Of a stretch of DNA of 64,000 bases, positions 9,311 through 62,634 are shown one piece after another. Source of the DNA: an uncultured Candidatus Saccharibacteria bacterium. Its GTDB lineage: Bacteria; Patescibacteriota; Minisyncoccia; Phycocordibacterales; GWA1-40-21. Position numbers and translations under genes: made by a program. Below the pieces are notes generated by a model. That model was not told the origin of the DNA, made no database searches, and saw only the letters and a list, made by a program, of their open reading frames with translations. Numbering within the stretch: position 1 is the stretch's first letter; every line of letters begins with the position of its first letter. The stretch is from NCBI GenBank assembly GCA_964567825.1, contig CAZMNX010000001.1:34775-98774 (forward strand). Reading direction: 5' to 3'.

Positions 9311-9354
9311 CTCCCCATCTTACACTAAAACAAACAATCAATAAATATGTCAAA

Positions 9355-9395
9355 GGGGTGGGGCGAATATTTCGCGCCCCACCCCCCTTTTTTTC
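9355..9395. terminator. GC-rich hairpin GGGGTGGGGCG-AATATTT-CGCGCCCCACCCC followed by T8; boundary of the GC-rich cassette
   Basis: Perfect 11-bp inverted repeat and T-run read directly, 30 nt downstream of the stop of the 9425..10333 gene. Confidence 0.45.
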
Positions 9396-9424
9396 TTCCT
9401 GCTTTCTTTGTACAGACAGACGGC

Positions 9425-10333
9425 TCAACCCTGCCGGTCGAGGATCTGCCGGAGCCGCTCGAGCATCTGCTTGGCTGCTTCCTCCATGGCAATCTCGGAG
9501 TCCTCGGCCGGAATGTGAACAACCTTCCACCCCTTGCGCAGCCCGAGGTTGTTGTGCCCATCAGCCTTCGGAACCGTGTCCCGCACGCCACGCCAGAAGA
9601 TCTGACGTGCCATCGAAACTTGTTCCGTGACGTAACGGTTGCGCGTAACAGCCGCCTCAATCAGACACCTCGCTTCGGCTTCAGATGAAGCCCTGACCTG
9701 ATGGACCGGCTTGAGCTCCGGCACCCGACTGAGGCGCTCGAGGACCACGCCGACACCCAACACGACCGGAGAAACGATTTCCCCGATGATGGTCTCCTCA
9801 CGTTCAAGGCTAACCAGAGGAAACCTTTCCCCCTCGACCTGCGCCGCACTCACCTCCGGCCCGGACATCGCTCGGCGCAAATCGCCGAAGAAGGTCAGCG
9901 CCAAGTGATCAGGCGTCTCAAACAAAGGTGTCGACGAAGCTCGACCACTCGGAGAAACCACCAACCAGCCGTCGCGCAGGGCGATGTCGTTCCAATTCCC
10001 GGGGAAGGTATGCAATACCCCCTGCCAGAAAAGATCGTTCATCATCACGCGAATAGCGTCGATTTCTGTCTGCCGCTCCTGGTGGCTGACCAAGGCCTCA
10101 AAACACGGGCGTTCCCGCCGATAGGTCTGCGTGAAGCTTTCCTCCTCGTCGAGCATGAGCAAGCGAAGCCGCTCGCCTTCACAGTAGAAGTTGCGGATCA
10201 TGGGATCCATCATCGTCCCCACCGAAAGCTCGCCGGGCTGATACTCCCGGTCTGAACCGCCGGTATCGACCACAACCGCAGTGTTGTTAAAGATCCGACG
10301 CGCAGACTCGAACACAGACAACTTGGTAGTCAT
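9425..10333 (-). CDS. GC-rich cassette gene A: unknown 302-aa protein with internal repeat, paralog of the 31093..31947 product
   Basis: About 60% GC ORF in a <40% GC background, with an SD (GAGGGAAA) and a low-GC TTGACA-containing upstream region. Its N-terminus aligns with the 31.9-kb gene (TMMDPMIRNFYCEG vs VLTDPMGRAFYHYG), and the motif LFW.GV..(n)LGLR.GW occurs twice. Confidence 0.5.
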   Translation of the reverse strand: MTTKLSVFESARRIFNNTAVVVDTGGSDREYQPGELSVGTMMDPMIRNFYCEGERLRLLMLDEEESFTQTYRRERPCFEALVSHQERQTEIDAIRVMMNDLFWQGVLHTFPGNWNDIALRDGWLVVSPSGRASSTPLFETPDHLALTFFGDLRRAMSGPEVSAAQVEGERFPLVSLEREETIIGEIVSPVVLGVGVVLERLSRVPELKPVHQVRASSEAEARCLIEAAVTRNRYVTEQVSMARQIFWRGVRDTVPKADGHNNLGLRKGWKVVHIPAEDSEIAMEEAAKQMLERLRQILDRQG

Positions 10334-10431
10334 CGTATTTCCCTCGTTAGACGTTACAGTTCGGTCACACTTCTAATTAATAGACTAATATACAACTAAA
10401 ACTATGTCAACATATCTAAAATAAAGAAATG

Positions 10432-11202
10432 CTAGCCAAAAATCTCCTTAAAATGCTCTGTCAAAATCTCGCTTTTTTCCTCTTTATCTGCCTCACTTAT
10501 TAAATCCTGCCACTCCTTGGCGGTAGAATATCTTTCTTTAACGTGAACCTCAGCCTTGTCTTTCAGATTATTTATATTTAAAGCTGGATGACCAGCTATG
10601 GCCGATACCACTCCAGCTGTTCGGGAAATTTTTTCATCGGCTACCGGGCGGAGGTCTTCTGGTTCAATATAAAATGTATAAACCATACTTGTTGGAGCTA
10701 AACATTTTCGTAAAATTACCGATATACCATCTTTAAATTTAAATCTGGGATTTTTTTTACCAATTCTATCAGTACCGCCAGTTGGATACAGTAAAACAAT
10801 TCCCCCGCTTTCAATGTGCTCCTTTATTGTTCTGATAAAAGATAGGGCCTCGGTCGGATCATCAGTCGCTTTAATTAAGAGCTCTTCACCCACAATTGGT
10901 GCAAAAAAATTATAGTTCGATTCATTGATAACAATTTTTAAATCTTTTCTTTTTAAGGCATTTAGAATGGTAAAAGTATCATAATAACCAGGATGATTAG
11001 CAATAATAATTCCAGCTTCAGTATTCAATTTTTCTCTAGCCTCAGTAAAAGCCGCTTCATCAGACTGCTCGAGAGCGTAAACCGGTTTCAGTTTTGCCTC
11101 TTCTAAAACTTTAGCGCCTGTCGCTTGAAAACCACCCTCAGCCAAATTGAGCTGCAAATTATCCGCCGCTATCTTATACAAATCACCTTTTAATCCCTCC
11201 AT
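10432..11202 (-). CDS. lysophospholipid acyltransferase (PlsC-like)
   Basis: ANHPGYYD matches the H(X)4D acyltransferase motif; 256 aa. Confidence 0.55.
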   Translation of the reverse strand: MEGLKGDLYKIAADNLQLNLAEGGFQATGAKVLEEAKLKPVYALEQSDEAAFTEAREKLNTEAGIIIANHPGYYDTFTILNALKRKDLKIVINESNYNFFAPIVGEELLIKATDDPTEALSFIRTIKEHIESGGIVLLYPTGGTDRIGKKNPRFKFKDGISVILRKCLAPTSMVYTFYIEPEDLRPVADEKISRTAGVVSAIAGHPALNINNLKDKAEVHVKERYSTAKEWQDLISEADKEEKSEILTEHFKEIFG

Positions 11203-11323
11203 GTGTTTTTATTTTTCGCTTAAACATAAAAATATCATACCATTCTATCAAGTTAAAAGTCATCAACGAAAAATACTTACCCGCAGGTCTTTGGATAGAA
11301 TGGAGATTTTAGACAAATGAAAA

Positions 11324-11359
11324 GGCCTCGCACACAAGTGGCGTGAAGTGTGCGAGGCA
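11324..11359 (-). terminator. rho-independent terminator of GC-rich cassette B
   Basis: GGCCTCGCACAC-(12-nt loop)-GTGTGCGAGGC perfect inverted repeat, followed on the minus strand by CTTTTCATTT. Confidence 0.5.
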
Positions 11360-11415
11360 CCCTTCATCCCCCGTACGAGGCCGTAGCGAGAAGATTCTTG
11401 GTTCTCTCAGACCAT

Positions 11416-11892
11416 TTACCAGCCACCGCCCTGCAACCGCCTGGCCACAGTTCTCGGCTTTTCGATGAAGTCGCTCATATCGCTGCCCTGGTAAAAGGGG
11501 CGATACTGATGTTCCTTCATCCAGTCAGCCAAGGCAACGCACCGATTCGCCATACCCATGACGATGGCGTGCGAAGACGGAACGGCTGGTGCGCTCCATC
11601 CTCGACGCTCTTGCCACCACCGCACAATGCGTGAGCGAGCCTCGTGCGTCCAAACCGCGACGTTGCGTTCCCACTGGAGGCGATCGTGAATCTGATCGGC
11701 CGCTTGCCGAAAAAGATTCACAAGCTCTTCTGAGCTGAGTGTCTTCCACTCTTGTCCGCCGTGTATGGGTACCCCCTGAAAGAGGGCCTCGTAACGCCTG
11801 ACGATGGGGCCGGCAAACGAAATGTTATTCGTGTCCGCGCTGCTCACCAACTCAATCCCCCCACCCGTCTTCTTGTAACGAATTATCTTCAC
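11416..11892 (-). CDS. GC-rich cassette gene B: unknown 158-aa protein (GTG start, SD AGGAGA)
   Basis: GC-rich ORF; the GTG start is preceded by ACAGGAGATTCACC; no recognizable motif. Confidence 0.4.
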   Translation of the reverse strand: MKIIRYKKTGGGIELVSSADTNNISFAGPIVRRYEALFQGVPIHGGQEWKTLSSEELVNLFRQAADQIHDRLQWERNVAVWTHEARSRIVRWWQERRGWSAPAVPSSHAIVMGMANRCVALADWMKEHQYRPFYQGSDMSDFIEKPRTVARRLQGGGW

Positions 11893-11977
11893 GGTGAATC
11901 TCCTGTTCTATCCGTTATTTCAACACCTGACTAGAACCCTATATATAACTCTAGCATATTTATTATAAAAAGTCAAA

Positions 11978-12007
11978 TGCGGAGGATATGGGACGACGTT
12001 GGAGCAG
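11978..12007. repeat. 30-bp direct repeat copy 1 (TGCGGAGGATATGGGACGACGTTGGAGCAG)
   Basis: 29/30 identical to the copy at 12730..12759; lies about 85 nt upstream of the cassette-B gene start, in that gene's orientation. Confidence 0.8.
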
Positions 12008-12035
12008 TATTGATAGAAAGTGAAGACGAACCGTG

Positions 12036-12692
12036 TTATTTCTGATATACAATCTTTAGACTTTTAATAGTCACTCCTGAATGCGGAGATGAAAAAGAAA
12101 TTTTTGATAAATAGATTTTTGATAAGCCAGCAAATAGCGCATTAAAATCATCCTGTTCGTAGTGTCGAATAACCCTTTCAATTTTGTTATTCTTGTCGTA
12201 AGAAAAACCGACACTATCTTCCCCTAGGATTTTTTTAGCAATTTGATATCTACTTTTATAGTCGGGTGAATAGGTCGCATCACAAAGCCACAGATATCCT
12301 CCACTTTTTAGAACGCGTATTATTTCTTTAGCGGCAGCTATTTGCTTTTTCTTAGAAATAATACTAGCAAAGACATACGGAACAACGACCGCATCGAATG
12401 TCTCATTGGCAAAAGGGAGTTCGTTAGTTATGTCTGCTCTCTTATAACTAATATTGCCATTTATCTTTTTACCCTCTTTTAAGGCTTTCACATTTAGGTC
12501 AACCCCAGTAACCGTATATCCTTTTCTAAATAAAAAATCAGAGACTTTCCCTATTCCACAACCGACATCGAGAATATTACTTCTCACCTTCAGGTGGTTG
12601 GTCAATTCTGGGCCGGGAAATACTGTCCCTGATAGAATTTTTTCGGGTTGAATATTTTTCCAATATTCTTTATTAAATTTATCACTATCCAT
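12036..12692 (-). CDS. class I SAM-dependent methyltransferase
   Basis: VLDVGCGIGKVSDFL glycine-rich SAM motif I; 218 aa. Confidence 0.75.
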   Translation of the reverse strand: MDSDKFNKEYWKNIQPEKILSGTVFPGPELTNHLKVRSNILDVGCGIGKVSDFLFRKGYTVTGVDLNVKALKEGKKINGNISYKRADITNELPFANETFDAVVVPYVFASIISKKKQIAAAKEIIRVLKSGGYLWLCDATYSPDYKSRYQIAKKILGEDSVGFSYDKNNKIERVIRHYEQDDFNALFAGLSKIYLSKISFSSPHSGVTIKSLKIVYQK

Positions 12693-12729
12693 CGAACGGC
12701 TATTGTAGCAAAATTTATTTGCGGAGGAT

Positions 12730-12759
12730 ATGGGACGACGTTGGAACAGCTTTAAACAA
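12730..12759. repeat. 30-bp direct repeat copy 2 (TGCGGAGGATATGGGACGACGTTGGAACAG)
   Basis: Overlaps the last codons of the ABC-F gene and lies about 38 nt upstream of the methyltransferase start. Confidence 0.8.
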
Positions 12760-14203
12760 TCGTTCCCCCACGGATAGTCAGGGTACGAGTAATTGATATC
12801 TTTTCGATAAAATAGCGATCGTGAGAAACTACAATGATAGAGCCCTTATAATCGACCAACGCGCTTTCAATTATTTCTCGAGAAATAATGTCGAGATGAT
12901 TTGTCGGCTCGTCCAAAACGAGTAGCTCGTTTTCTTGATTTGTTAATTTAGCGAAAATAAGCCTCACCCTTTCACCCAGACTTAAATCGGAAACTTTTTT
13001 AAAAATATCCTGTCCACGAAAAATAAAGGCGCCCAAGATGGCCCTAGGATCCCTTGTCGTGCCAATTAATCTATCAGTGTTTAAGAATTCTTCAATTACA
13101 GTCTTATTCGGGTCTAAGTTTTCATGCTCTTGGGCAAAGTAACCGATATGAACTTTTTCACCAATTCTTACGTTTCCCTCATCTAGCGCGAGGTCGCCGG
13201 CTATTATTTTAAGTAAAGTTGTTTTTCCCGAACCATTATCCCCGGAAAGTAAAATCCTTTCTCCTCCTCTTACCTCAAGATTGATTCTCCAAAGAATATT
13301 TTTTTCGGCAAATCTTTTGGTCACCTCTTTAACTCTAATTATAAGTTTGGAGGCAGCTGTTTCTCCTTTTAGGTCGAGCCCCCGAATCTTATTGTATTCT
13401 CTTGGCTTGATGATTTCTTGACTGTAAATTTCTCTTTCTAATCTTTTTTCCATCGCCCTGATCTGCTTGCCCTTGGCAGGATCTGGATGCACATGTGCCT
13501 CTTGTTTTTTTAGAGCTAACCAAAGTTCCATCCGCTTCTTTTCTTTTTGCTGTCGCCAATAATTATCCTCCTGCCTCAAAAGCTGATTGTTCCTCTCCGT
13601 CACGTAGTCACTATAACCTCCAACGTATTGAGTAAATTTATGATTTACAGGATTAATTTCTAATATCTTACTTACACAGTTATCAAGTAATTTTCTATCG
13701 TGAGAGATTAGTAAGATTGCCCCCTTAAAATCCTTAATGAGGCTTTCGAGCCACTCTACACCCTTCTTATCCAAATGGTTTGTCGGTTCATCAAGTAGTA
13801 AAATGCCGGCCCCTTCAAGTAATATTTTTGCTAGGGCTAGTCTGGTTTTTTGCCCTCCGCTTAATTTATTTACTAATGTGTCAGTTGCTACCTTGCTAAG
13901 CCCAACTTTTTCAAGAATTGATTTCGCCCTACCGACGCTTTCGTCGATTGATAGGAAACTCTTTATTGTGTCAGTACCCTGATGGGACGGTTGTTGTGGC
14001 AAATAGCCAACTCTTTCGTGATCTATCTGAACATTACCCCCATCTGCTTCTATTTCACCAACGATTATCTTCATAAGGGTTGATTTACCAGAACCATTTG
14101 GTCCAACTAAGCCGATTTTATCTTTTTTGTCCAAGGTAAAAGACACCTTTTCAAAGAGGGGCTCACCTAGTATCGATTTTGTTATATTTTTTACGGTAAT
14201 CAT
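12752..14203 (-). CDS. ABC-F family ATPase (EttA-like translation factor), two ABC domains, no TM
   Basis: Two Walker A motifs (GPNGSGKST, GDNGSGKTT), two LSGG signatures and a charged linker; 483 aa. Confidence 0.85.
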   Translation of the reverse strand: MITVKNITKSILGEPLFEKVSFTLDKKDKIGLVGPNGSGKSTLMKIIVGEIEADGGNVQIDHERVGYLPQQPSHQGTDTIKSFLSIDESVGRAKSILEKVGLSKVATDTLVNKLSGGQKTRLALAKILLEGAGILLLDEPTNHLDKKGVEWLESLIKDFKGAILLISHDRKLLDNCVSKILEINPVNHKFTQYVGGYSDYVTERNNQLLRQEDNYWRQQKEKKRMELWLALKKQEAHVHPDPAKGKQIRAMEKRLEREIYSQEIIKPREYNKIRGLDLKGETAASKLIIRVKEVTKRFAEKNILWRINLEVRGGERILLSGDNGSGKTTLLKIIAGDLALDEGNVRIGEKVHIGYFAQEHENLDPNKTVIEEFLNTDRLIGTTRDPRAILGAFIFRGQDIFKKVSDLSLGERVRLIFAKLTNQENELLVLDEPTNHLDIISREIIESALVDYKGSIIVVSHDRYFIEKISITRTLTIRGGTIV

Positions 14204-16846: not shown

Positions 16847-16851
16847 ATTAT

Positions 16852-19539: not shown

Positions 19540-20112
19540 ATGACTAAAGTCCAAAAGTATCTTCTGCCCATCACTCTAGTTTTAGCAATCATTTTTGGTG
19601 TTTCTACTTCTCTTTTAAAAAGTAAAAATCCTGGCGATGCCATAAGTAATCTCGGCGCCGCCGTCGTCTCAACTATGGGTTCGGGTAGCAGTAGTTCAAG
19701 GTGGACATGTGATCCAGGTCCCGATCCAAGTGGGTGTGTTCCAGGAACGCATATAATGAAAACTTTCGTATTAAGGGGCTGTGGTTGGACCCAAACATAT
19801 GAAGGCTGCTCAGTTAGTTGTGGTGCAGATCCTATGCTTCCCTATCCCAATCCTATGTCGCGCTGTTCTGGAATTAAAACCATAACAAAAGAGTATAAAA
19901 ACTGTAAGTGGGTAGACGGTAGTCCGAAGTGTGAATATAATAGTTGTTCTTTGGCGCGAAAACCTAGAAATGGCTGCGCTAACAATGTTACCTTAACATC
20001 TTGGAATCTGGACCGAGCTTCCTGCTCGTGGAAACCAGTATATTTACCCTGCAGTATGTATGGTCTGACGAGATGTGATCCAAATATTACAGCTGAAAAT
20101 AAGTGCATCTAA
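19540..20112 (+). CDS. Cys-rich secreted/anchored protein 1, with a leader identical to that of the 20997 gene
   Basis: Signal/TM YLLPITLVLAIIFGV plus a Gly/Ser linker; 21 Cys in 136 aa of the mature part; the first 53 codons plus 21 nt upstream are identical to the paralog. Confidence 0.6.
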   Translation: MTKVQKYLLPITLVLAIIFGVSTSLLKSKNPGDAISNLGAAVVSTMGSGSSSSRWTCDPGPDPSGCVPGTHIMKTFVLRGCGWTQTYEGCSVSCGADPMLPYPNPMSRCSGIKTITKEYKNCKWVDGSPKCEYNSCSLARKPRNGCANNVTLTSWNLDRASCSWKPVYLPCSMYGLTRCDPNITAENKCI

Positions 20113-20996: not shown

Positions 20997-21632
20997 ATGA
21001 CTAAAGTCCAAAAGTATCTTCTGCCCATCACTCTAGTTTTAGCAATCATTTTTGGTGTTTCTACTTCTCTTTTAAAAAGTAAAAATCCTGGCGATGCCAT
21101 AAGTAATCTCGGCGCCGCCGTCGTCTCAACTATGGGTTCGGGTAGCAGTTCGAGTAACGGGCCTTGTTCGAATGGCAGGCCATGTTGTGGCGGTAGGCCG
21201 TACTCTGGTTTCGAACGTTGTTGCAATGGCGTAATATACGATAGTGAATCTTGGCAGGGCATTAATCCAGATGGCAGTATCAGTGACCATGACCGAGTTT
21301 GTTGTGGTGGTAGGGTTGTGGTAGTTGGGAATGATAGTCGCTGGGTAGGTACTATATGTTGTCAAAATATCAATACTGTTAAGACTTATAATCGTCGCCA
21401 TTGGGATTGTAGCTCCACGGGAATATGTCTACTAAATGAGACCAGAGTTTGTGGTGGTTGCGCAAATCAGCCTAATCCACTAGAGGCACCTTATTGTGTT
21501 CAATATGATACGGGGGCACATATGATTCACCGCACATGGAATAGTCAAAGATGTGCTTATGGTGATTTCCAATGGACCGATTGTGGTCCTGGTTCTCGAT
21601 GTAATAGCACAGGGACAGCTTGTCAAAGATAG
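20997..21632 (+). CDS. Cys-rich secreted/anchored protein 2, with the identical leader module
   Basis: Same 53-aa N-terminus, then a different Cys-rich domain (CCGG repeats; 26 Cys). Confidence 0.6.
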   Translation: MTKVQKYLLPITLVLAIIFGVSTSLLKSKNPGDAISNLGAAVVSTMGSGSSSSNGPCSNGRPCCGGRPYSGFERCCNGVIYDSESWQGINPDGSISDHDRVCCGGRVVVVGNDSRWVGTICCQNINTVKTYNRRHWDCSSTGICLLNETRVCGGCANQPNPLEAPYCVQYDTGAHMIHRTWNSQRCAYGDFQWTDCGPGSRCNSTGTACQR

Positions 21633-29305: not shown

Positions 29306-29722
29306 ATGCCTCACACCTTCAATATTTTCCCCGAATTATTTTCTTTTTCTCTAATTGCACCAAGTATTTTAAGGGTTATTTTGGGTTTGCTCTTTCTCAA
29401 CCTAGGCTCACTTAAGCTCGGAAAAGAGCGATCGGGATGGGTATCCTCGTTTAAGCTTTTAAATATTCACCCAGCCGGATTCTTCACTGGTCTACTGGGA
29501 ATTGTTGAAACAGTTGGTGGCTTTTTACTGATAATCGGTGCTTATACCCAGCTTACCGCTTTAATTTTGTTAATCATTTCAATCTGCGAACTAATGATCG
29601 AGTACCGAGAAGAATCAGTTCTCAAAAGAGATTTTGTTTTCTACTTACTACTAGCAACCATTTGTGTCTCACTTCTACTCACCGGTGCCGGTTTGTTTGC
29701 GGTGGATATTCCAATCCTATAA
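29306..29722 (+). CDS. DoxX family membrane protein
   Basis: Four TM; ILGLLFLNLGSLKL and ETVGGFLLIIG DoxX-like motifs. Confidence 0.55.
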   Translation: MPHTFNIFPELFSFSLIAPSILRVILGLLFLNLGSLKLGKERSGWVSSFKLLNIHPAGFFTGLLGIVETVGGFLLIIGAYTQLTALILLIISICELMIEYREESVLKRDFVFYLLLATICVSLLLTGAGLFAVDIPIL

Positions 29723-29761
29723 AAACGTAAAAGGTCCGGCGCGATGTGCTCGCGCCGGACC
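29721..29761 (-). terminator. rho-independent terminator of GC-rich cassette C
   Basis: GGTCCGGCGCG-ATGTGCT-CGCGCCGGACC perfect 11-bp stem, followed on the minus strand by TTTTACGTTTTT. Confidence 0.55.
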
Positions 29762-29785
29762 CCTCCCTAACCTCCACCCAGACTC

Positions 29786-30220
29786 TTACTCTGTCTGGTA
29801 TTCCTCGATGATTGTAATGAACGAATACCGCTTGACCCCATAGGCGTAACCACGCATGATGTCCCTCATCCCCCGATACTCTTCGCGATAGCCGAAGTTG
29901 AACGAGAAACGATTGTACCACCAATAGTAGTACCAGCCTTCAGTCTGCACGAACTCGCGCCAAGCCTGCGGGTTGAACTGGACGAGTTTTGCACTGTAGC
30001 CCCGCCCCGCTGAAGTTATTGCCACTCGCATAGGCCGAGTGTCAATTCGTGTCACCCACACCCAAGGGGCCGACACGTGCCATCCGCCTCGTTCTTGTAA
30101 CCACATCTTGCCATTGAACCAATTCCTGGCAAGGCCAACCTGAGTGAGGTCGGTGTAGTTCAGAAAAGACAGATAGAAAAGCAGGACAAAGGCCAGAACG
30201 GCCACAATCTTCCTTTTCAT
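29786..30220 (-). CDS. GC-rich cassette C gene 2: SPFH/band-7-like small membrane protein
   Basis: Start MKRKIVAVLAF is a TM helix; GWHVSAPWVWVTRIDTRPMRVAI and AKLVQFNPQ resemble the N-terminal half of an SPFH domain; the ATG overlaps the upstream stop (ATGA). Confidence 0.4.
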   Translation of the reverse strand: MKRKIVAVLAFVLLFYLSFLNYTDLTQVGLARNWFNGKMWLQERGGWHVSAPWVWVTRIDTRPMRVAITSAGRGYSAKLVQFNPQAWREFVQTEGWYYYWWYNRFSFNFGYREEYRGMRDIMRGYAYGVKRYSFITIIEEYQTE

Positions 30221-30768
30221 TTTCCACTTCCGACCGAGGCGGTAGGCACACCAGCCTGACTCGGCGCAAGCTCTTTGCCGACGATGAGAAACGGGCAATC
30301 CCGCCCAGCTTCACTGTCAAACGCGTAGCACCGAAGAATTTCCGCCAGGTCGTTACGGCTGTCTCCAGCCTTCCGACCATGCCAGCGCAGAAAAACGTCG
30401 AGGCCCTTCGGATCAAACTGCACAAGCTTGGCATTCAGTACCCGGCTGCTTATGCTGCCGACACCCCCACCACCCGACGACGTTCCGTTGAGCCCGCCAG
30501 TGATCTGCACCTGAATTGGGCGTAGATCGATCGCGTGCACGCTGTAATGGAACGGATTGCGGATGAAGTAGCCGGTGCGATCAAGATGCTCGATCTCTCC
30601 GGTGTACTTGTTGAAGGTGAACGGAAATTCGTAGTTGTCCACGAACGTCACGAACACGACCCGGAAGAACAGCAAAGCGATGAGCGCAACGCCCAACGAA
30701 ATGCCGCCCCAGACCAGGACGCCCGACAGGCTGATGCGAAAACGAAACTTGCTCGATGTATCATTCAT
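30217..30768 (-). CDS. GC-rich cassette C gene 1: SPFH/band-7-like small membrane protein
   Basis: Start MNDTSS preceded by SD AGAGG; TM helix; GYFIRNPFHYSVHAIDLRPIQVQI and NAKLVQFDPKG are stomatin/HflK-like. Confidence 0.4.
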   Translation of the reverse strand: MNDTSSKFRFRISLSGVLVWGGISLGVALIALLFFRVVFVTFVDNYEFPFTFNKYTGEIEHLDRTGYFIRNPFHYSVHAIDLRPIQVQITGGLNGTSSGGGGVGSISSRVLNAKLVQFDPKGLDVFLRWHGRKAGDSRNDLAEILRCYAFDSEAGRDCPFLIVGKELAPSQAGVPTASVGSGK

Positions 30769-30868
30769 CTCGAACCTCTTAGTTTTGACGAACACACAGA
30801 TCTCTTGGCGAAATACCAAGTTTAATCTCCGTCGCAAGGTTATCACACAATAGACTATTTGTCAACTG

Positions 30869-30941: not shown

Positions 30942-31008
30942 ATTGAAAAGAATATAACAAGAAAAAACCCAAATGTCCAATAATATTCCGACTATACAAT
31001 ATCAAAAA

Positions 31009-31052
31009 AGAGGCCGGTGGTGGGAATCGAACCCACACACCGCCTCCCATAT
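31009..31052 (-). terminator. tRNA T-arm-like hairpin plus T6: terminator of cassette D, or a tRNA 3' remnant
   Basis: On the minus strand GGCGGTGTGTGGG-TTCGATT-CCCACCACCGGCC is followed by TCTTTTTTGA. It has a T-loop-like TTCGATTCC, but no complementary 5' acceptor strand could be found. Confidence 0.4.
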
Positions 31053-31092
31053 TTGTTCTCCACCTCCAAACTAGATGTCTGTCGAGCCCCGT

Positions 31093-31947
31093 TCAGCCAA
31101 CGCCGACCATAACCTCCTGTGGCGGGAACGACGTCAGCATCCAACCCGCCCGGAGGCCAAGTGAGGACGTCTGCTCGCCATCGAGCATCTTCTCGACCAC
31201 CCCCGCCCAGAACAGATCGGCGGCCAAGTCACTGCGAGTTCGCGCGCGTTCCATGGCGACCAGAACCTTCCTGACGTAACCGATGGAGTGCGAAGCCACG
31301 AAGGCATTCATACCCGTCTTGTCGTTCATGAAGGGAATCTCGGCTTTGGCATCGTCCCGAATCTGAGACGAAACGTTCCAGAGTGCCCGCAGAGCTGGAT
31401 CATCGATCGTCGCCATTTCGGCTTCGCCCTCTTCGAGTGGCGAATCCACGTCAAACGAAGCTTCGGCCGCCGTTCCGCTGTCGCCCTTCAGAGCTGCAGT
31501 CACCTCATCCAGAAAGTTCGGATGGGGATTCTTCACGTCACCACCGAACTGACCGAATAGCCCGTCCTTCTTGGCGAACACCCGGAACCCAGAGCAGATC
31601 ACTCCCTGGTCGAAGATGCCGCGCATGGCCGGCAACTCGCGCAAAATGCATTCCCAAGCGAAACGCATCAGCAGGTTGCCGTCCTCCCTCGCCCGCTGCG
31701 CGCTCTGAATCCGCCTGCCGAACTCGCCGAGATTGGGCAGACTGATCAGGCCGCCGGACAGCGACTCCATCACTTTCTCGCGACCGTAATGGTAGAACGC
31801 CCGCCCCATGGGATCGGTCAGGACACCGATCTCCTCGTAACCCCCTGGGGCCTCTGTTCTATTGACAGTGCAGATCTCCGACGGGACGTGCCCGTTCAAA
31901 ATCTCACCCACCAAAACGAACGCCGACTTACTCTTGCTTGTGCTCAT
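31093..31947 (-). CDS. GC-rich cassette gene D: unknown protein, paralog of the 9425..10333 product
   Basis: About 60% GC; ATG at 31945-31947 preceded by GAAAGG; shares DPMGRAFYHYG and ADLFWAGVV..(n)..LGLRAGW motifs with cassette A. Confidence 0.5.
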   Translation of the reverse strand: MSTSKSKSAFVLVGEILNGHVPSEICTVNRTEAPGGYEEIGVLTDPMGRAFYHYGREKVMESLSGGLISLPNLGEFGRRIQSAQRAREDGNLLMRFAWECILRELPAMRGIFDQGVICSGFRVFAKKDGLFGQFGGDVKNPHPNFLDEVTAALKGDSGTAAEASFDVDSPLEEGEAEMATIDDPALRALWNVSSQIRDDAKAEIPFMNDKTGMNAFVASHSIGYVRKVLVAMERARTRSDLAADLFWAGVVEKMLDGEQTSSLGLRAGWMLTSFPPQEVMVGVG

Positions 31948-32050
31948 GGCACTGCCTTTCTGGTCCAATAATGTGGACCGATTGACTAACCAACAACCGA
32001 ACAGACATCAAAAAACTACTAAACCTAAAAAGGAGATTAGCACGAATAAT

Positions 32051-32692
32051 CTATTGTGTCAAAGCGGCATCAATCTGGGCTTTAAGAGTTTGCAGATCCG
32101 TAACCTCTACCCCATTTAAAAGCAAAAAGGGTGTGTAGTCCAAAGCCAAAGCCTTGGCATCATTCAAATCAGCCTGAATAAAATCAGCAAATTTCTTTTG
32201 ATCAATATCGGCTTTAAATTTTACAATGTCTAAACCAACAGTTTTAGCGTAACTCACAAAAAGAGCCGTCGGATCTTTTATCTCGGCCCAATCATTTTGA
32301 TTTTTGTAAAGTAATTCACTCATTTCCCAATATTTACCCTGAGCATTTGCCGCCTCAGCAGCTTCGGCTGAAGGAAAAGCATTAATGTGTTGAGATAATG
32401 GAAAATTACGATACACAAAATTAAAATTGGGGTTGGTTTTATAAGAATCGGCAATTTGTTTTACAAAAGGTGAAACCGTAGCACAGGCTGGACATTGAAA
32501 ATCACCAAACTCTACTAAGGTAACTTTCGCTGTTGTTGTACCAGTCATGTGGCTATTTGGTCTAACCAACAAACTAAGGTCGCGGGCCTTACCATCATTA
32601 GGCTTCGGAGCAAACCAAATAAAAGCTCCGAGTAAAACTACGCAGATAACGACAATGCCAACAATCATTTTTACTTCACTATTTATTTTCAT
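32051..32692 (-). CDS. DsbA-family thiol:disulfide oxidoreductase, N-terminal TM
   Basis: FGDFQCPAC CxxC active site in a thioredoxin-fold context. Confidence 0.7.
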   Translation of the reverse strand: MKINSEVKMIVGIVVICVVLLGAFIWFAPKPNDGKARDLSLLVRPNSHMTGTTTAKVTLVEFGDFQCPACATVSPFVKQIADSYKTNPNFNFVYRNFPLSQHINAFPSAEAAEAANAQGKYWEMSELLYKNQNDWAEIKDPTALFVSYAKTVGLDIVKFKADIDQKKFADFIQADLNDAKALALDYTPFLLLNGVEVTDLQTLKAQIDAALTQ

Positions 32693-55056: not shown

Positions 55057-55059
55057 GGT

Positions 55060-55413: not shown

Positions 55414-55490
55414 TTTTATTTAAAATTATTCTAATAAATCAATTTTTATAACTCCATTCTACTCTCCCTGCTTTATTATGCAAATTTTAA

Positions 55491-55510
55491 AGAGCTCGAC
55501 CGAAGTCGAG
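55491..55510 (-). terminator. hairpin GCTCGAC-CGAAGT-CGAGC downstream of cassette E
   Basis: Inverted repeat followed on the minus strand by CTTTAAAATTT. Confidence 0.35.
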
Positions 55511-55583
55511 CCCTGTTGATAGTGGTTCCGGACATATCAGGTCCGTTGCAGAGTAATCTGCGTAGAAGTTAGGAAAAGGACCG

Positions 55584-56405
55584 CTAGTCCTTCATGAGGA
55601 TCTCGAGCGCCGCCGCCCAATCCTTGGTGCCGTCCGCGTTCATCGGCGCGTGCATCATGACCGTCTTCGCCCCATCGATCTTCACCGAGAAGGACGAGTA
55701 GTAGTCAAATGCCGCCGAGAACGGATCCGCGTGATGGTTCAAGTCGGTGACCACCGCAACAAACTTGGCTCCACGATGCGCCGCCTCGACCATGAGGAGA
55801 ACACCGTAGGGAACGAGCTCGCCGAGCTTGAAGTTGCTGCCCATTGTCTTGGAAGACATCGGGAGATGCAAGTCCGTGAGAACGACGTCGAACTTCTCGC
55901 TGCCGAGAGTCTTCATCGCTTCCTCGTAGCCCGTCGCCGTCGTGAGCTTCTGTCCGGCCAGGCCAGACTTCGCGCTCACGATGTGTGTGGCCGTATCGTC
56001 GATGACGAGGATGCGGAGAGCATCAGGGCGGAGAGGAACTGCTTCCTCAACCACTTTGGCCACCGGAACTTCCAGCGGTTGGAGTCTCGCACGAATCCCG
56101 TTGATGACATCAACGAGACCAACCAGGATATTCACCGTGGGGATGATCAAGCAGTTCTCGGGCAACCGCAAGCGCTCCTCACGATTCGACAGCCTGAGGC
56201 AGGCGTACGACTTCTCCTGGCTGTACCCACGCTCAATCTCACGCACGTCTGTGAAGATGACGAGATCCGCCTCGTCCACCGTTTCCACGAACACATGCGA
56301 AGTTTCGTTGCCGACGATCGGCAAGACCTGCTTGATCGAGCGTGGGAGGGGTCCGTCCTCCATCGCGAGACGAATTCGAACCGGTCGGTTTGTTGTTGTG
56401 CTCAT
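55584..56405 (-). CDS. GC-rich cassette E gene 2: unknown N-terminal domain plus C-terminal receiver (REC)-like domain
   Basis: ILVIDDTATHIVSAKSG...KFDVVLTDLHLPM...VAVVTD resembles CheY-like DD / D-phosphoacceptor / T spacing; start ATG at 56403-56405 with SD AAAGGAAAAG. Confidence 0.45.
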   Translation of the reverse strand: MSTTTNRPVRIRLAMEDGPLPRSIKQVLPIVGNETSHVFVETVDEADLVIFTDVREIERGYSQEKSYACLRLSNREERLRLPENCLIIPTVNILVGLVDVINGIRARLQPLEVPVAKVVEEAVPLRPDALRILVIDDTATHIVSAKSGLAGQKLTTATGYEEAMKTLGSEKFDVVLTDLHLPMSSKTMGSNFKLGELVPYGVLLMVEAAHRGAKFVAVVTDLNHHADPFSAAFDYYSSFSVKIDGAKTVMMHAPMNADGTKDWAAALEILMKD

Positions 56406-56557
56406 TGGCACTTTTCCTTTCTGTTGTTGTAAAGATCTTTTCCGTTTCGTCCTTTTGGACTCATCAGGTAAAGTACTCACTTTACTACGGAGGGGCATTT
56501 ACTATGGCGCCCCAGATGCCATGAAAGTTTCTTAGCACTTACAACAGATGAAGGTCC

Positions 56558-56994
56558 CTAGTCCCGCTTCGGATCGGCCCAGAAGATCGCGTAGGCGATC
56601 ATTTCCGGGGTGACGTTTGTCACCTGGCCGATCTCATCGAAGTACCACGGAGTGGCCCGATTCAGGTCCATACCATCGGTACAGACGATGAGACCGAGCT
56701 TCTGCCGACTCTCCTGGCTCATGTCCAGGGCATTCCCCGCGATCATGAGCTTCCAGCCGGTGGCCTGCAGGAAATTCTGCAGATCGCCAGCCTTGATCGG
56801 AACGACCAGCCGGCCGTCCACGTACCGAACGCACCGCTCCTGAGGAACGATGACGTCGGCGGCCGCCTGCGCCTCGCCGCATCCCGGACAGGGCTTAGCT
56901 CCGCCCACCGAGACGCGGACCAGAGCCGCCGCCAGAAACAAGCCGACCCCGACCACCGCAATCACCCACAGGGTATCGCAAATGCGCTTCATCA
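56558..56994 (-). CDS. GC-rich cassette E gene 1: membrane-anchored hypothetical protein
   Basis: MMKRICDTLWVIAVVGVGLFLAAALV TM; SD AAGGGAGAG before the ATG; GC-rich. Confidence 0.4.
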
Positions 56995-57131
56995 TGACTT
57001 TCTCTCCCTTTATTTCAATCACCTATTGATCGCGTTGTGCGACCCGGGGTAGGTGAAACCCCACTGTCTAGTATGATAGCATACTTTAGGCTAAAAGTCA
57101 AGCACTTTTTAAGGCCCTAGGGAGGGAGTGT

Positions 57132-57824
57132 TTATAGGGCTAAGATAAAGCGTTCTAGAGCCACCGCGAAGTCTATTTCGCCACGATGAGCCTCGTGATA
57201 CATATTAAAAAGCTGTGAGGACATCTTTTTGAGCTTTTTTGAATCATAGTTTCGAAATTGCTGATCAGAAAGCATCTTTTTAACTTTCCAAAAGAAAATG
57301 CCGTGCACCTCTTCCGATGGCACTTTTTCCGCTAAAGCATCTTGATACAAAGTCCACAATTCCTTTTTATTTTTATCGCCTAAAGCATTAGCAAATTCAA
57401 AAAAATCAATCTTCTCCCCTTTTAAGGCTAGGGCCTCTTTTTTATTTAATTTTTTTTCTGGTTTTACAAATTCCTCAATCTTATTATTTTCACTCTCATA
57501 TTTCTTAAATTTCTCCAGTTCTTTTTTATTTAGCTTACCCTCTAAAAACACAAAAAAGTTTGGCGAGGTGCTGATATCCTTTATTTTTCCCAACAAAACT
57601 TCCCCGGTCTCTTCTTCATCACAAAGGTGATCAGCAAAAACTAAAGTTTTAGCAAAAAACAAACCCTGACTGGCGATCAATTCATCCAGCTTACTTTCTG
57701 AAAAATTCTCGACGTTTAATTTAAAAAAACCAGCATCCGCATGCTTCTTTTTAGCGGCCACAATATTCTTTTGGGCCACATTTCGGGCCTTGGCCGTGTC
57801 GGTACCGTGGAATAAGAAAAACAT
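57132..57824 (-). CDS. holA: DNA polymerase III delta subunit-like (HolA)
   Basis: N-terminal FFLFHGTD (y-l-y-G-D type motif), C-terminal GEIDFAVALERFIL, directly downstream of polA. Confidence 0.5.
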   Translation of the reverse strand: MFFLFHGTDTAKARNVAQKNIVAAKKKHADAGFFKLNVENFSESKLDELIASQGLFFAKTLVFADHLCDEEETGEVLLGKIKDISTSPNFFVFLEGKLNKKELEKFKKYESENNKIEEFVKPEKKLNKKEALALKGEKIDFFEFANALGDKNKKELWTLYQDALAEKVPSEEVHGIFFWKVKKMLSDQQFRNYDSKKLKKMSSQLFNMYHEAHRGEIDFAVALERFILAL

Positions 57825-57841
57825 GATTTAACTATAACCTA

Positions 57842-60229: not shown

Positions 60230-60266
60230 GATTAAGGTATTATAGCATTTTCAAAACTTAATCTTG

Positions 60267-61661
60267 TCACTGTAAATATGGATAGCTACTTCCTTCATCA
60301 ATGATCCAAACGGAATCGAAATCCCAATCGGTGAAAGTCTCCTGTTGATACATGGCTGAGGTTGTGGTGCCTGTACCCAGAGCACTTTCCAACATTCCTG
60401 AAGTTTCGATATCCCAAAAAGAATAATTCACAGTACAACCAAAGGAAGAAAGACCAATTAGACCTCCGCGACCATCTCCGTCTCCACCAACAATCAAACC
60501 AGTAGAGTAAGAATTACTAATACTAGCCATGGAACACTGCCCAGCTAACCCGCCAACAGCACTAGACCCTTCTACACTCGCCAAAGAATATGAATTCGTA
60601 ATTCCACTATGACTCCCGATCGATCCGACCAAACCACCAACAGCATTCAACCCATTAACACTACCGGTCACATATGAATTTAAAGTGTCAGAATCCGCCA
60701 GTGCTCCAACCAAACCACCTACCGCGTTACCCCCAAAAATATTTACATCAACTAAGCCTAGATTAGAGATACTGCCCATTGAAAATCCAAAAAGACCGAC
60801 GTATCCAGTTTCTGGTAAATTGATAGTTAAATCGGATATTGTATAATTTTGTCCGTTTAAAGTACCGGCGAACTTATTTGATGGATTGCCGATCGGCTGC
60901 CAATCTGCTCCAAACTCATCATAACCGAAGGTATCAACATCGAGATTATTATTCAAAACAAAATAAGAATTTATAAGATAATATCTAATATTATTCAGTT
61001 GAGCCCAATTACAAATCTGATATGGGTTACCTTCAGATCCATCCCCTCCACAGAACTCTGGGGAGTATTCTCCGGCCACCCCTAAATAAGTTACCCCCTC
61101 TGCGACAAAAGGGGCTTTATCAACACCAAGCTGAGACAACAACTCGTAAATTTGAACCAAATTACACATGGAATTATTTGGAGGACCAGAAGGAGAACTG
61201 GCGTGGGCGGCGGCAGTCGTGGTGGTGTTGTTGTTAATCAAATTACAAATATCTTCTAAAGAATAACCAGTGGGATCACCGGGTGAACCGTGGGGAGTGA
61301 GAGAAGAAGCGATGACACTAGTGGTGGCATAAACAGGATCAGGATTTCCATAATCACCAGTGACTCCGAGGTAAACAGTACCGGTAGCCACATTTTCTCT
61401 TTTAATTAAATTTGCCAGGTCAGCATAAAGTTGCGATATGGAGTATGAAGAAGTGGCTGTGGGTGAAGTAGTTGGAGAAAAAGAATGATCACCCTCTACC
61501 GCTGTATCAATACTATGAATCAAATTATAAATATCAGTTGTTGTGTAATACATGGGCCTGACTTCTCCGGTGTTATATGCAAACTCAGCAACAACAAGAA
61601 CAGTAGACAAGATCAAAATCAAACAAACAAAAAATATTACTGAGCTAAAATTAGCTTTCAT
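60267..61661 (-). CDS. secreted GLUG-motif repeat protein
   Basis: Signal peptide, then repeated G-GLVG..N.Y..G.V.G...VGGLVG units (GLUG-like), Thr/Ser-rich linker. Confidence 0.55.
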   Translation of the reverse strand: MKANFSSVIFFVCLILILSTVLVVAEFAYNTGEVRPMYYTTTDIYNLIHSIDTAVEGDHSFSPTTSPTATSSYSISQLYADLANLIKRENVATGTVYLGVTGDYGNPDPVYATTSVIASSLTPHGSPGDPTGYSLEDICNLINNNTTTTAAAHASSPSGPPNNSMCNLVQIYELLSQLGVDKAPFVAEGVTYLGVAGEYSPEFCGGDGSEGNPYQICNWAQLNNIRYYLINSYFVLNNNLDVDTFGYDEFGADWQPIGNPSNKFAGTLNGQNYTISDLTINLPETGYVGLFGFSMGSISNLGLVDVNIFGGNAVGGLVGALADSDTLNSYVTGSVNGLNAVGGLVGSIGSHSGITNSYSLASVEGSSAVGGLAGQCSMASISNSYSTGLIVGGDGDGRGGLIGLSSFGCTVNYSFWDIETSGMLESALGTGTTTSAMYQQETFTDWDFDSVWIIDEGSSYPYLQ

Positions 61662-61718
61662 GAGAAAATTATATCACTCTGTGGTGAATTTTACATCTAT
61701 ATATAGACCATATGAGTG

Positions 61719-62162
61719 TCACCACACTATTTCCCGCTCGTTCTCCGAGATAAATTTAAAATTAAGTCTGATTAAATCTTTTGGCAAGACATCAATCACC
61801 CGCTCTGGCCATTCTAATAAAATTAAATTGCTTTTATCTTGGAGTATTTTTTCAAAACCCAAAACCTGTAACTCTCTTCCGGAGTCAAGACGATAAGCAT
61901 CAATGTGAATTAAGTTTTTAAAATTATTTTTACCGTCGAGCTGATATATTTTTTCAATTACAAAAGTTGGACTGGTCATAAACTCATTAATTCCCAAATG
62001 GCGACCGAGAGCTTGCGAAAAAGTGGTTTTACCAGAACCGAGGTCGCCAAACAAGCCGATGAGGGTGGCCGTTTCCTTTCCCTTTTCTAATTTAATAATC
62101 TTACTTAAAAAATCACCCGCAATCTTATTCGTCTCTTCTAAACTTTTACTTAAAAATTTCAT
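61719..62162 (-). CDS. tsaE: tRNA threonylcarbamoyladenosine biosynthesis protein TsaE
   Basis: LFGDLGSGKTTFSQALGRHLGI P-loop and HIDAYRL; 147 aa. Confidence 0.85.
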   Translation of the reverse strand: MKFLSKSLEETNKIAGDFLSKIIKLEKGKETATLIGLFGDLGSGKTTFSQALGRHLGINEFMTSPTFVIEKIYQLDGKNNFKNLIHIDAYRLDSGRELQVLGFEKILQDKSNLILLEWPERVIDVLPKDLIRLNFKFISENEREIVW

Positions 62163-62185
62163 CGCTATATTTTAGCATAAAAAAA

Positions 62186-62230
62186 GGAGCGCGCTGGGAG
62201 ATTTTCCTCTCCCAAACGCGCCAGGCCCTT
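62186..62230 (-). terminator. rho-independent terminator of GC-rich cassette F
   Basis: Compound hairpin GCGCG-CT-GGGAGA-TTTTCC-TCTCCC-AAA-CGCGC, followed on the minus strand by TCCTTTTTTT. Confidence 0.6.
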
Positions 62231-62236
62231 AGGCCT

Positions 62237-62575
62237 TCACCGTTGCCGTGGTGGTAATTGGGGCAACAGCCCCTGGAACTCCTGGCCCGATGGGGACTGA
62301 CTGACACCAGCCTGAGACCCGCCACCACTCGTTCCCCAACTCCAGTTCCCGCTGGTGTGCCAGGTACCACCATTGTATGGCACAACCGCCGCGCCATTGC
62401 CCGTGCTGCGGGCTTTGTTGTGATAGGTTGTCGTTTCCTTGATCGTACCATCGGGCAGGGTCACCCGCTCGTAGGTGGTTTCCCCGCTGTTTTCGGATTC
62501 TGACACCTGTGGTGCCGTCATGCACCCGCCCGCCAGCACGAGCCCAATCATCGCAAAGAACACTGTCGTTTTCAT
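62237..62575 (-). CDS. GC-rich cassette F: small lipoprotein (lipobox LAGGC), Gly/Ser/Thr/Trp-rich
   Basis: MKTTVFFAMIGLVLAGGC signal/lipobox; SD AGGGGA; GC-rich. Confidence 0.5.
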   Translation of the reverse strand: MKTTVFFAMIGLVLAGGCMTAPQVSESENSGETTYERVTLPDGTIKETTTYHNKARSTGNGAAVVPYNGGTWHTSGNWSWGTSGGGSQAGVSQSPSGQEFQGLLPQLPPRQR

Positions 62576-62634
62576 ATCGCATCCCCTGGTTAACCCACAC
62601 TATCACTCGGAATTTCGAAAACTACTATTCCACT

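Follow-up and report, generated by a model that had tools for sequence, protein, structure and literature searches.

The six GC-rich islands that interrupt the AT-rich DNA analysed here (a stretch of 64,000 nucleotides, hereafter the window) are, judged from their sequence, real accessory genes of a very small candidate-phyla-radiation (CPR) bacterium of the Paceibacteria type, and each island is transcribed on its own. As the explanation of their composition we favour, with moderate confidence, a lineage-wide class of fast-evolving accessory genes that reside in Paceibacteria-type CPR and are held at high GC, a class assignment that covers the three families that could be traced (E1, A/D and F). 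In these families the coding GC3 lies at about 0.55–0.8 regardless of the surrounding AT-rich genome, and 64 of 1029 ORFs, found in 36 of 71 low-GC related loci, proved to be high in GC and enriched in lipoboxes.

Sliding-window analysis (100 nt, threshold GC > 0.5) delimited islands A (9338–10358, GC 0.581), B (11274–11909, 0.557), C (29657–30805, 0.543), D (30992–31987, 0.584), E (55490–57131, 0.568) and F (61972–62626, 0.516) in a window with a mean GC of 0.406. Both the number and the coordinates of the ORF-sized islands given in the original prediction were thereby confirmed (GC 0.52–0.58 versus 0.40). The islands carry eight genes, all on the minus strand, whose GC3 of 0.65–0.79 exceeds that of the 65 other ORFs of the window (0.378 ± 0.047, maximum 0.51) by 5.7–8.7 standard deviations, with a bimodal distribution when set against these background ORFs. 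The pattern GC1 > GC2 < GC3 in all eight is consistent with coding in the assigned frames. Codon usage likewise sets the cassettes apart from the resident genome and resembles that of an organism of 58–60% GC, being rich in CTG, AAG, CAG, CGG and NCG codons.

Each island also turned out to be the self-contained unit that had been proposed, with its own sigma-70-like promoter, Shine-Dalgarno site, ORF(s) and strong hairpin terminator. The promoter-like sites, all on the minus strand, comprise TTGACA-17-TAGTCT for cassette A (10382–10410), TTGACT-17-TAGAGT with an upstream TG for B (11948–11976), TTGACA-17-TAACCT directly after tRNA-Lys for C (30837–30865), TTGACA-17-TAATCT within the 3' end of dsbA for D (32034–32062), TTGACT-17-TATCAT with an upstream TG for E (57073–57101) and TTGACA-17-TATAAT for F (62635–62663). 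The last of these matches the consensus at 12 of 12 positions, as claimed, while A, C and D combine a perfect TTGACA with weaker −10 boxes 17 nt further on. The pattern TTGACA-N17-TAnnnT occurs eight times in the window against 0.62 expected, four times upstream of cassettes. The promoter of E is conserved at the DNA level in L095 and L083, and that of F in L020, L026 and L004. The terminator hairpins, again on the minus strand, fold at −26 to −33 kcal/mol (z −3.8 to −4.9) and consist of a 14-bp GC hairpin for A (9352–9388), the hairpin GCCTCGCACA...TGTGCGAGGC followed by a T-rich tail for B (11324–11358), a 16-bp hairpin plus T tract for C (29729–29765), a hairpin followed by a T tract for D (31008–31048), a terminator hairpin (55491–55514) preceded by two conserved hairpins within the E1 3' UTR (55491–55583), and a hairpin for F (62188–62222), conserved among relatives in its 3' half and T tract. 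Two further features were observed in these elements: the tail of the A terminator contains a TTTGACA that doubles as a possible −35 box for ruvX, and the D hairpin resembles a tRNA acceptor/T-arm minihelix (loop UUCGAUU).

Abrupt GC steps in a metagenome-derived genome could in principle reflect chimeric assembly, or contaminating high-GC reads joined to a low-GC contig. We regard the probability of such an artefact as negligible. Each junction lies precisely at the passage from promoter to ORF or directly beyond the terminator, dozens of unrelated metagenome assemblies show this architecture as well, and an independent Logan assembly contig, which is 100% identical to window positions 6425–13333, crosses all four junctions of A and B and so reproduces both islands.

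The products are non-housekeeping and their units are sited among housekeeping genes and a tRNA gene, as originally described. Gene A (9425–10333, minus strand, GC 0.59, GC3 0.72–0.73) encodes a two-domain protein of 302 aa from an uncharacterised family with the motifs GE.V.G.I.D..R and LFW.GV..FP..IGIR.GW.VV, and gene D (31093–31947, minus strand, GC3 0.74) a protein of 284 aa. The suggestion that the two are paralogs was upheld by 24% identity over the full length. Their family comprises 85 representative clusters, and no close homologs of A or D besides their own entries were found among 5.8 billion proteins. The three A/D homologs examined are single-ORF islands in AT-rich genomes (gene GC 0.50–0.53 versus 0.36–0.41), each with a TTGACA promoter and a GC hairpin, and the family is GC-enriched in 5/5 cases sampled. 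Gene B (11416–11892, minus strand, 158 aa, GTG start, GC3 0.67–0.68) gave no match in the family search; neither for A/D nor for B would we assign a biochemical function. Genes C1 (30217–30768, minus strand, 183 aa) and C2 (29786–30220, minus strand, 144 aa), the latter with a start that overlaps the C1 stop, both carry an N-terminal membrane anchor. The two are paralogs. They had been predicted to form an SPFH-like pair, but the SPFH/Band 7 assignment found no support: Pfam searches returned no match at all for either protein and a C1+C2 profile no PDB sequence match, both at E up to 10.

The observation that several frames, including antisense ones, are open in each island raises the question whether these segments are structured non-coding RNAs in which long ORFs arise by chance, the more so as such RNAs are often what lies behind a GC-rich intergenic segment of an AT-rich genome. 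This reading is very improbable in our view. The codon-position GC pattern fits the proposed frames, paralogy and families are detectable at the protein level, signal peptides and a lipobox are present, and the AlphaFold models of E1 (pLDDT 92.5) and A (pLDDT 90.4) are confident; the sole Rfam family match was a hammerhead.

Cassette E holds two genes. E1 (55584–56405, minus strand) encodes 273 aa with an N-terminal alpha/beta domain and a receiver (REC)-like domain. Its AF2 model matched 2ayx, 3rqi and CheY in Foldseek at probability 1.0 and superposes on CheY-like domains, in keeping with a predicted flavodoxin-like (beta-alpha)5 fold, and a profile search against the PDB returned receiver domains at E = 1e-6. 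Both searches support the REC-like character that had been proposed for E1. Against Pfam PF00072 it scored 20.5 bits over the first half of the domain, below the gathering threshold of 30.2. As candidates for the acidic pocket, the phospho-acceptor Asp and the conserved Lys of a receiver, all 76 family sequences share D137, D178 and K261, and T220 is nearly invariant; the spacing of these residues differs from that of CheY because of insertions. E1 is likely to be a receiver-type signalling protein. More than 147 homologs (44–79% identity, all about 270 aa) were found, and those that carry an organism name belong exclusively to Taylorbacteria, Wolfebacteria, Parcubacteria and Paceibacterota. 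The gene was GC-enriched in 8/9 genomes examined, with gene/rest-of-locus values of 0.57/0.40 in the window and 0.484/0.314, 0.530/0.447, 0.546/0.431, 0.537/0.341, 0.537/0.347 and 0.576/0.519 in others; one homolog has a GC of 0.54 between flanks of 0.28–0.39, and the exception is the L086 homolog (0.443/0.422).

The second gene, E2 (56558–56995, minus strand), encodes a membrane-anchored protein of 145 aa with a GC3 of about 0.8 and occupies a variable slot in which relatives carry another gene or none. Between E2 and E1 lies a previously unnoticed, predicted type III hammerhead ribozyme motif, new here (56440–56491, minus strand), with a predicted cleavage site after the A at 56486. The core CUGAUGA and GAAA together with a GUA/GUC cleavage triplet are present in 5/5 instances, all 15 helix pairs are 100% paired, eight of them changed on both sides (0 of 500 shuffles equalled this covariation among relatives), the minimum-free-energy fold is a three-way junction, and the descriptor gave no match in 300 shuffles of the window. 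The motif scores below the Rfam gathering threshold (25.5 bits versus 34 for RF00163), a model of the type I permutation whose topology differs from that of the type III hammerhead of cassette E. The predicted ribozyme would cleave the E2-E1 transcript and could thereby uncouple the variable upstream gene from E1.

Gene F (62237–62575, minus strand) lies in the slot upstream of tsaE and encodes a lipoprotein of 112 aa, as had been suspected, with the signal peptide MKTTVFFAMIGLVLAGG-C and the lipobox LAGGC; lipoboxes also occur in genes at the same position in relatives. The slot is filled in nearly all relatives, its promoter and terminator being conserved while the ORF is unalignable among them. 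In 48/52 non-redundant genomes the gene upstream of tsaE exceeds polA in GC3, on average by +0.16. The GC3 regression slope was 0.47 for the slot gene versus 0.96 for tsaE, and the slot-gene regression crosses the polA line at about 0.68. Detectable similarity among slot genes tracks polA relatedness; the slot is fixed in position and its content turns over extremely fast. L022 and L025, with polA proteins 98% identical in amino acids, carry slot genes that are 52–53% identical with saturated synonymous sites, and comparison of these alleles suggests intragenic recombination. For L051 and L053, 10 of the 11 differences within 13.2 kb fall in the slot gene, nine of them within 49 bp and seven of these nine synonymous; the alignment shows a clustered, mostly synonymous tract, read from this pattern as recombination. 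This recombination evidence concerns the F-type gene in other genomes, the window cassettes being represented by one sequence each.

The proposal that single-gene cassettes were repeatedly acquired from a non-CPR, high-GC donor, with the host of an episymbiont as one candidate, is disfavoured and appears improbable to us. Non-housekeeping products would speak for it, as would a GC content and codon usage like those expected at about 60% genomic GC. Yet no such donor was found for the three traced families, none of which had a named member outside the Paceibacteria-type CPR group: named E1 homologs are all CPR, A and D lack close homologs, the distant A/D relatives with context examined sit in AT-rich genomes of CPR-like gene content, and F represents a positionally conserved locus across the clade. 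The promoters, moreover, are native in type and conserved among relatives. As the families are group-restricted and GC-rich in nearly every carrier, a recent arrival from a high-GC host is not their origin; the alternative already offered in the original prediction, high GC maintained for some other reason, agrees better with the data. The further idea of one accessory system formed by all six islands was not sustained: in the other loci inspected the families do not appear together.

Recent lateral transfer within the CPR deserves more weight, and we consider it possible, if rather unlikely. Here the cassettes would pass from one Paceibacteria genome to another, supplied by GC-richer members or a mobile gene pool, and their high GC would mean that drift to the composition of the present AT-rich genome is still incomplete. 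The foreign-like codon usage, a classical signature of foreign DNA, and the changing contexts of the E unit support this reading; both count against resident genes held at high GC, as does the L086 homolog that lacks enrichment. The E unit was found in differing genomic contexts in the window, L095, L089 and L086, from promoter to terminator and including the 3' UTR, and E1 was not found within ±10 kb of polA in 80/80 polA-related loci, including L020 and L026, where no gene of cassette E was found in that interval; together these observations imply movement. Islands with E1 homologs (L086/L087) and one with an A/D homolog (L092) lie within the ribosomal operon, at its rplB-rpsS junction, some relatives are themselves GC-rich (L041, 0.58; L048, 0.57; L091, 0.52), and the range of E1 gene GC from 0.44 to 0.58 is as expected for stages of amelioration. 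Most gene transfers in Patescibacteria occur within the phylum according to a published survey (PMC12455944). On the other hand, GC enrichment is near-universal (E1 8/9, A/D 5/5, F slot 48/52 genomes), so transfer would require all copies to have arrived recently, and it persists at 20–80% protein divergence, where synonymous sites are probably saturated, as measured for the L022/L025 slot gene only. The closest E1 relative is only 79% identical, and no near-identical alleles were seen across distant genomes, F-type similarity following polA instead. Neither integrase nor transposase genes were seen among the window ORFs, no k-mer of at least 8 nt was common to at least three cassette boundaries, direct repeats flanking the cassettes were no longer than chance, no att-like motif or target duplication was detected, and no cassette copies were found on viral contigs.

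Returning to resident genes held at high GC, we infer that a locus-specific, GC-favouring process would most likely oppose the AT-biased mutation of the genome. [quoted passage not shown] The GC3 excess of +0.3 in the window, like the average of +0.16 in the F slot, is probably well above the differences between genes that are commonly attributed to bacterial gBGC. Ordinary translational selection is ruled out by the AT-rich third positions of rplS and rpsT (GC3 0.29–0.30). F, C1/C2 and E2 are likely envelope or surface proteins under diversifying pressure. Tentatively, Paceibacteria may hold a separate compositional compartment, in which the synonymous sites of strongly expressed, fast-evolving and mostly envelope-associated accessory genes are pulled to a GC3 of about 0.65–0.7. 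If so, recombination hot spots with a gene conversion bias of unusual strength could supply the locus-specific force, or else GC-rich transcripts could be selected for their resistance to nucleases; one unit of the compartment would carry a first-gene slot that is open to replacement and has a hammerhead ribozyme at its boundary.

Among known systems, compositionally atypical genomic islands and islets ascribed to horizontal transfer show a likewise sharp deviation in GC and codon usage, hold accessory and orphan genes, and resemble C and D in adjoining a tRNA gene. In contrast to them, the present units hold one or two genes, lack integrase, att sites and direct repeats, and are GC-richer than their AT-rich genome, the opposite of the usual direction; as these families show GC enrichment in almost all carriers, the deviation is a property of the gene family and not of one transfer. 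Integron gene cassettes are likewise ORF-sized modular units with orphan genes, whereas the islands have their own promoter and terminator per unit and are dispersed over 53 kb instead of arrayed. The integron assignment was rejected, as no shared attC-like boundary and no integrase gene were noticed in the window.

Hypervariable surface-protein loci share with the F slot the fixed flanks, promoter and terminator around a fast-changing coding sequence, as well as lipoprotein or membrane products and, in one pair, mosaic recombination; unlike at those loci, neither silent donor copies nor switching through repeats came to light here. Such loci in other bacteria usually exceed the genome in AT, not in GC. 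Genes subject to bacterial gBGC (Lassalle et al. 2015, PMC4450053) show a similarly gene-specific raised GC3 that is independent of codon-usage selection, and the F-type gene with its clustered, mostly synonymous tract of putative recombination resembles them; the effect here amounts to a GC3 of +0.16 on average for the F slot and +0.3 for the window.

The two predicted alpha/beta domains of E1 recall the C-terminal ABL linker and phosphoreceiver of RcsC (PDB 2ayx), and its second domain superposes on CheY-like receivers; the candidate acidic residues and lysine are invariant within the E1 family. E1 is a stand-alone protein of 273 aa without kinase or output domain, no partner kinase was found for it, and it differs from CheY-like receivers in insertions after beta-3 and a sub-threshold score for Pfam REC. 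The predicted ribozyme shares with known type III hammerheads (Rfam clan CL00010) the catalytic core CUGAUGA ... GAAA, the A15.1-U16.1 pair, a GUA/GUC triplet and three helices with loop-closed stems I and II. Bacterial intergenic hammerheads have been reviewed (PMC6155905); for that of cassette E no phage association was found. It is very compact, with a 7-bp stem I, a 4-bp stem II and no obvious loop-loop tertiary contact, and is set within a CPR operon whose variable gene it separates from the receiver-like one.

A sliding GC profile of the window (mean GC 0.406) revealed six segments well above the mean: islands A (9338-10358, GC 0.581), B (11274-11909, 0.557), C (29657-30805, 0.543), D (30992-31987, 0.584), E (55490-57131, 0.568) and F (61972-62626, 0.516). 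They carry eight minus-strand ORFs, namely A (9425-10333), B (11416-11892), C1 (30217-30768) and C2 (29786-30220), D (31093-31947), E2 (56558-56995) and E1 (55584-56405), and F (62237-62575). All six units are preceded by a promoter-like site and closed by a strong hairpin, which bears out the original prediction of ORF-sized GC-rich islands in a low-GC genome, each with its own promoter and terminator. The F promoter matches the consensus at 12/12 positions, those of E and B combine TTGACT-17 with an extended -10, and in those of A, C and D a perfect TTGACA is paired with a weaker -10. The pattern TTGACA-N17-TAnnnT was found 8 times where 0.62 would be expected, half of the matches being at cassettes. 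Continuity of the assembly held across all A and B junctions, which are crossed by a Logan assembly contig 100% identical to window 6425-13333. The T-rich tail of the cassette A terminator reads TTTGACA and overlaps a -35-like hexamer before ruvX (9352-9345 region, minus strand). The cassette D terminator (31008-31048, minus strand) is a 16-bp hairpin that resembles a tRNA acceptor/T-arm minihelix with the T-loop motif GGGUUCGAUUCCC. Located 70 nt upstream of the genuine tRNA-Lys gene, this hairpin is not called as a tRNA by ARAGORN.

Codon usage also sets the cassettes apart. Their ORFs have GC3 values of 0.65-0.79, compared with 0.378 +/- 0.047 (maximum 0.51) for the 65 other ORFs of the window, corresponding to a distance of 5.7-8.7 sd, and their codon usage is shifted wholesale towards CTG/CTC, AAG, CAG, CGG/CGC and NCG. 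At four-fold sites, the cassettes show G 0.39, C 0.33, T 0.19 and A 0.09, whereas the background shows T 0.36, C 0.23, A 0.21 and G 0.20. Ordinary translational selection was rejected as the cause of the high GC, since third codon positions are AT-rich in two genes for ribosomal proteins, rplS and rpsT (GC3 0.29-0.30).

For E1, more than 147 homologs with 44-79% identity were found. Where these carry an organism name, it is Candidatus Taylorbacteria, Wolfebacteria, the Parcubacteria group or Paceibacterota, which places the window organism among Paceibacteria-type CPR bacteria. Across nine genomes, the E1 gene has a GC of 0.44-0.58 vs 0.31-0.52 for the rest of the locus and is clearly GC-enriched in eight of them; at one locus (L089) it forms a single-gene island with pyrG and recR on either side, and at another (L095) its flanks have a GC of 0.28-0.39. 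Three homologs of the paralogs A and D (the A/D family) are likewise single-ORF islands (GC 0.50-0.53 vs 0.36-0.41). All three have a TTGACA promoter and a GC hairpin, and one is located directly upstream of rpsS. A word-indexed homology search with A and D as queries returned for each its own entry as the sole match, and neither the E1 profile nor a hammerhead variant was present in the viral collection IMG/VR. A set of 71 related low-GC loci, free of redundancy, contains 1029 ORFs, of which 64, distributed over 36 loci, are high-GC, and a lipobox occurs in 9% of the high-GC ORFs against a comparison value of 0.8%. A synteny search based on the acyltransferase gene that separates A from B gave a single 56% relative without synteny in genome contigs and none in metagenome contigs.

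Cassette F lies upstream of tsaE. A polA scan provided 80 related loci, in which tblastn with all cassette proteins detected no homologs. In the three closest relatives (L020, L026 and L004), the promoter and the 3' half of the terminator of F recur in the corresponding position relative to tsaE, upstream of it, and between them lies an unalignable GC-rich ORF that again encodes a lipoprotein. GC3 of this slot gene exceeds that of polA in 48 of 52 non-redundant genomes (mean excess 0.16) and tracks the genome weakly, with a slope of 0.47 and an intercept of 0.36, vs a slope of 0.96 for the neighbouring tsaE; the slot-gene and comparison lines cross near 0.68. Detectable slot-gene similarity mirrors relatedness by polA and so speaks for vertical descent accompanied by very rapid divergence and not for exchange between clades. 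In one pair, polA is 98% identical in amino acids and 93% in nucleotides, while the slot gene reaches 53% and 57%, respectively, with synonymous sites saturated. Two nearly identical strains (L051 and L053) show 11 differences over 13.2 kb, 10 of them in the slot gene, where 9 fall inside 49 bp (9163-9211) and 7 of these 9 are synonymous. Differences clustered in this way and mostly synonymous mark a short tract acquired from a diverged allele by recombination and not hypermutation; adenine-specific (DGR-type) mutagenesis was also dismissed, given the mixed and mostly synonymous substitutions. In the same neighbourhood, a gene of normal GC for a 464-aa GLUG-motif protein (60267-61661, minus strand) sits between tsaE and polA; it is missing from L020 and L026, where tsaE abuts polA, and has a homolog in L012. 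In L020 (12374-13017) and L026 (12335-12723), the polA-holA interval contains small, moderately GC-rich membrane-protein genes on the opposite strand; the interval is empty in the window and represents another variable slot.

These observations bear directly on the origin of the cassettes, for which a high-GC donor, possibly the host, had been suggested. A donor outside CPR is not supported, as the traceable families (E1, A/D and the F slot), judged by names and contexts, are confined to CPR, almost all genomes that carry them have them in GC-rich form, and the F cassette is a conserved locus of its clade. No motif common to the cassette boundaries, no target-site duplications and no integrase were found. 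Circulation of the cassettes within CPR with amelioration never completed would account for their foreign-looking codon usage, for the E unit being found in differing genomic surroundings and for the islands at the rplB-rpsS junction, and published evidence indicates that most gene transfers of Patescibacteria occur within the phylum (PMC12455944). GC enrichment is, on the other hand, near-universal among homologs whose synonymous sites are probably saturated, similarity between F-slot genes follows the phylogeny, and slot-gene GC3 behaves as if drawn to a fixed value. For these reasons we consider circulation less likely and lean, with little better than even confidence, towards resident genes that are kept GC-rich by a local force. 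[quoted passage not shown] The rplB-rpsS junction of the ribosomal protein operon is interrupted in a Wolfebacteria genome (L086/L087, 3217-8712) by an island of roughly 5.5 kb that includes an E1 homolog and a hammerhead, and an A/D-family gene lies directly upstream of rpsS in L092 (6001-6876); this junction may be an insertion hot spot. A PIF1-family helicase gene adjoins an E1 homolog in one genome (L088, 6954-8342) and an A/D-family gene in another (L093, 4151-5896), a proximity that may be fortuitous or reflect a common neighbourhood.

In the E unit, the spacer between E2 and E1 contains the sequence CCGUA|GUAAAGU-GAGU-ACUUUAC-CUGAUGAG-UCC-AAAA-GGA-CGAAACGG (56440-56491, minus strand), which is predicted from its core, GUA cleavage triplet and three stems to be a compact, complete type III hammerhead. 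Rfam scores it below threshold (25.5 bits vs the type I model); at gathering and E-value thresholds, the whole window gave tRNAs and this sub-threshold hammerhead only, and the remaining cassettes gave neither ribozyme nor riboswitch matches. A structural descriptor matched the window, L083 (4846-4896), L086/L087 (L086 3989-4040), L090 (5929-5980) and L070 (64-147); one further match in 1.2 Mb (L013) is weaker and probably spurious, and 300 shuffles of the window gave none. In four instances all 15 pairs are formed, 8 of them with compensatory changes, and a covariance model built from these instances independently recovers L070 (E = 4e-9), a variant whose stem II carries a long insertion and which has unrelated genes alongside. 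Three hammerheads lie directly upstream of E1 homologs and a fourth in the same island as one. DNA comparison revealed the order conserved promoter, variable first gene, conserved hammerhead spacer, E1 and conserved 3' UTR, the first gene being E2 in the window, a gene for a 177-aa protein in L083, a lipoprotein gene in L090 and absent in L095. The predicted ribozyme would likely cut the E transcript and thereby uncouple the variable first gene from E1. The 3' UTR (55515-55583, minus strand; L095 1192-1273) contains two hairpins, one of which covaries between the window and this closest relative (GGAC..GUCC vs CGAC..GUCG), and may function as an RNA element in regulation or stabilisation.

Searches of all eight proteins against Pfam, NCBIfam, PADLOC and PHROGs yielded nothing significant except weak REC matches for E1; the defence-system and phage libraries among them gave no match. 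E1 is a conserved protein of 273 aa whose predicted model (pLDDT 92.5) is similar to the linker-plus-receiver region of RcsC and to CheY-like receivers, in agreement with its earlier description as REC-like; the residues D137, D178 and K261 do not vary within the family. The paralogs C1 and C2 are membrane-anchored, and nothing supports the SPFH likeness proposed for them, B matched no family and is unrelated to A/D by profile comparison, and F carries a textbook lipobox. Nothing points to cooperation of the six units as one accessory system. Elsewhere in the window, a long run of repeated gene pairs (about 33100-54050), as assigned by eye, alternates putative TrmB-like regulators with putative periplasmic binding proteins, of Peripla_BP_6 type by similarity to the L083/L090 annotation, and ABC transporter components. 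Two plus-strand ORFs (19540-20112 and 20997-21632) share an identical N-terminus of about 53 aa (MTKVQKYLLPITLVLAIIFGVSTSLLKSKNPGDAISNLGAAVVSTMGSGSSSS) and diverge beyond it, the product of a recent partial duplication or of recombination.

GC deviation is routinely taken as foreign DNA or MAG contamination, while here it is tied to gene families and persists across many genomes. Automated transfer detection and bin cleaning would misclassify or discard the cassette genes. Should gBGC or mRNA selection be the cause, these loci would be a strong example, open to direct testing, of the compositional forces at work within a bacterial genome. The hypervariable lipoproteins, membrane proteins and conserved receiver-type protein are candidates for episymbiont surface and signalling functions. 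Our literature searches found no earlier description of GC-rich islands in Patescibacteria or of hammerheads in CPR; the predicted hammerhead provides a CPR example within an operon, which bears on the question of what bacterial hammerheads do.
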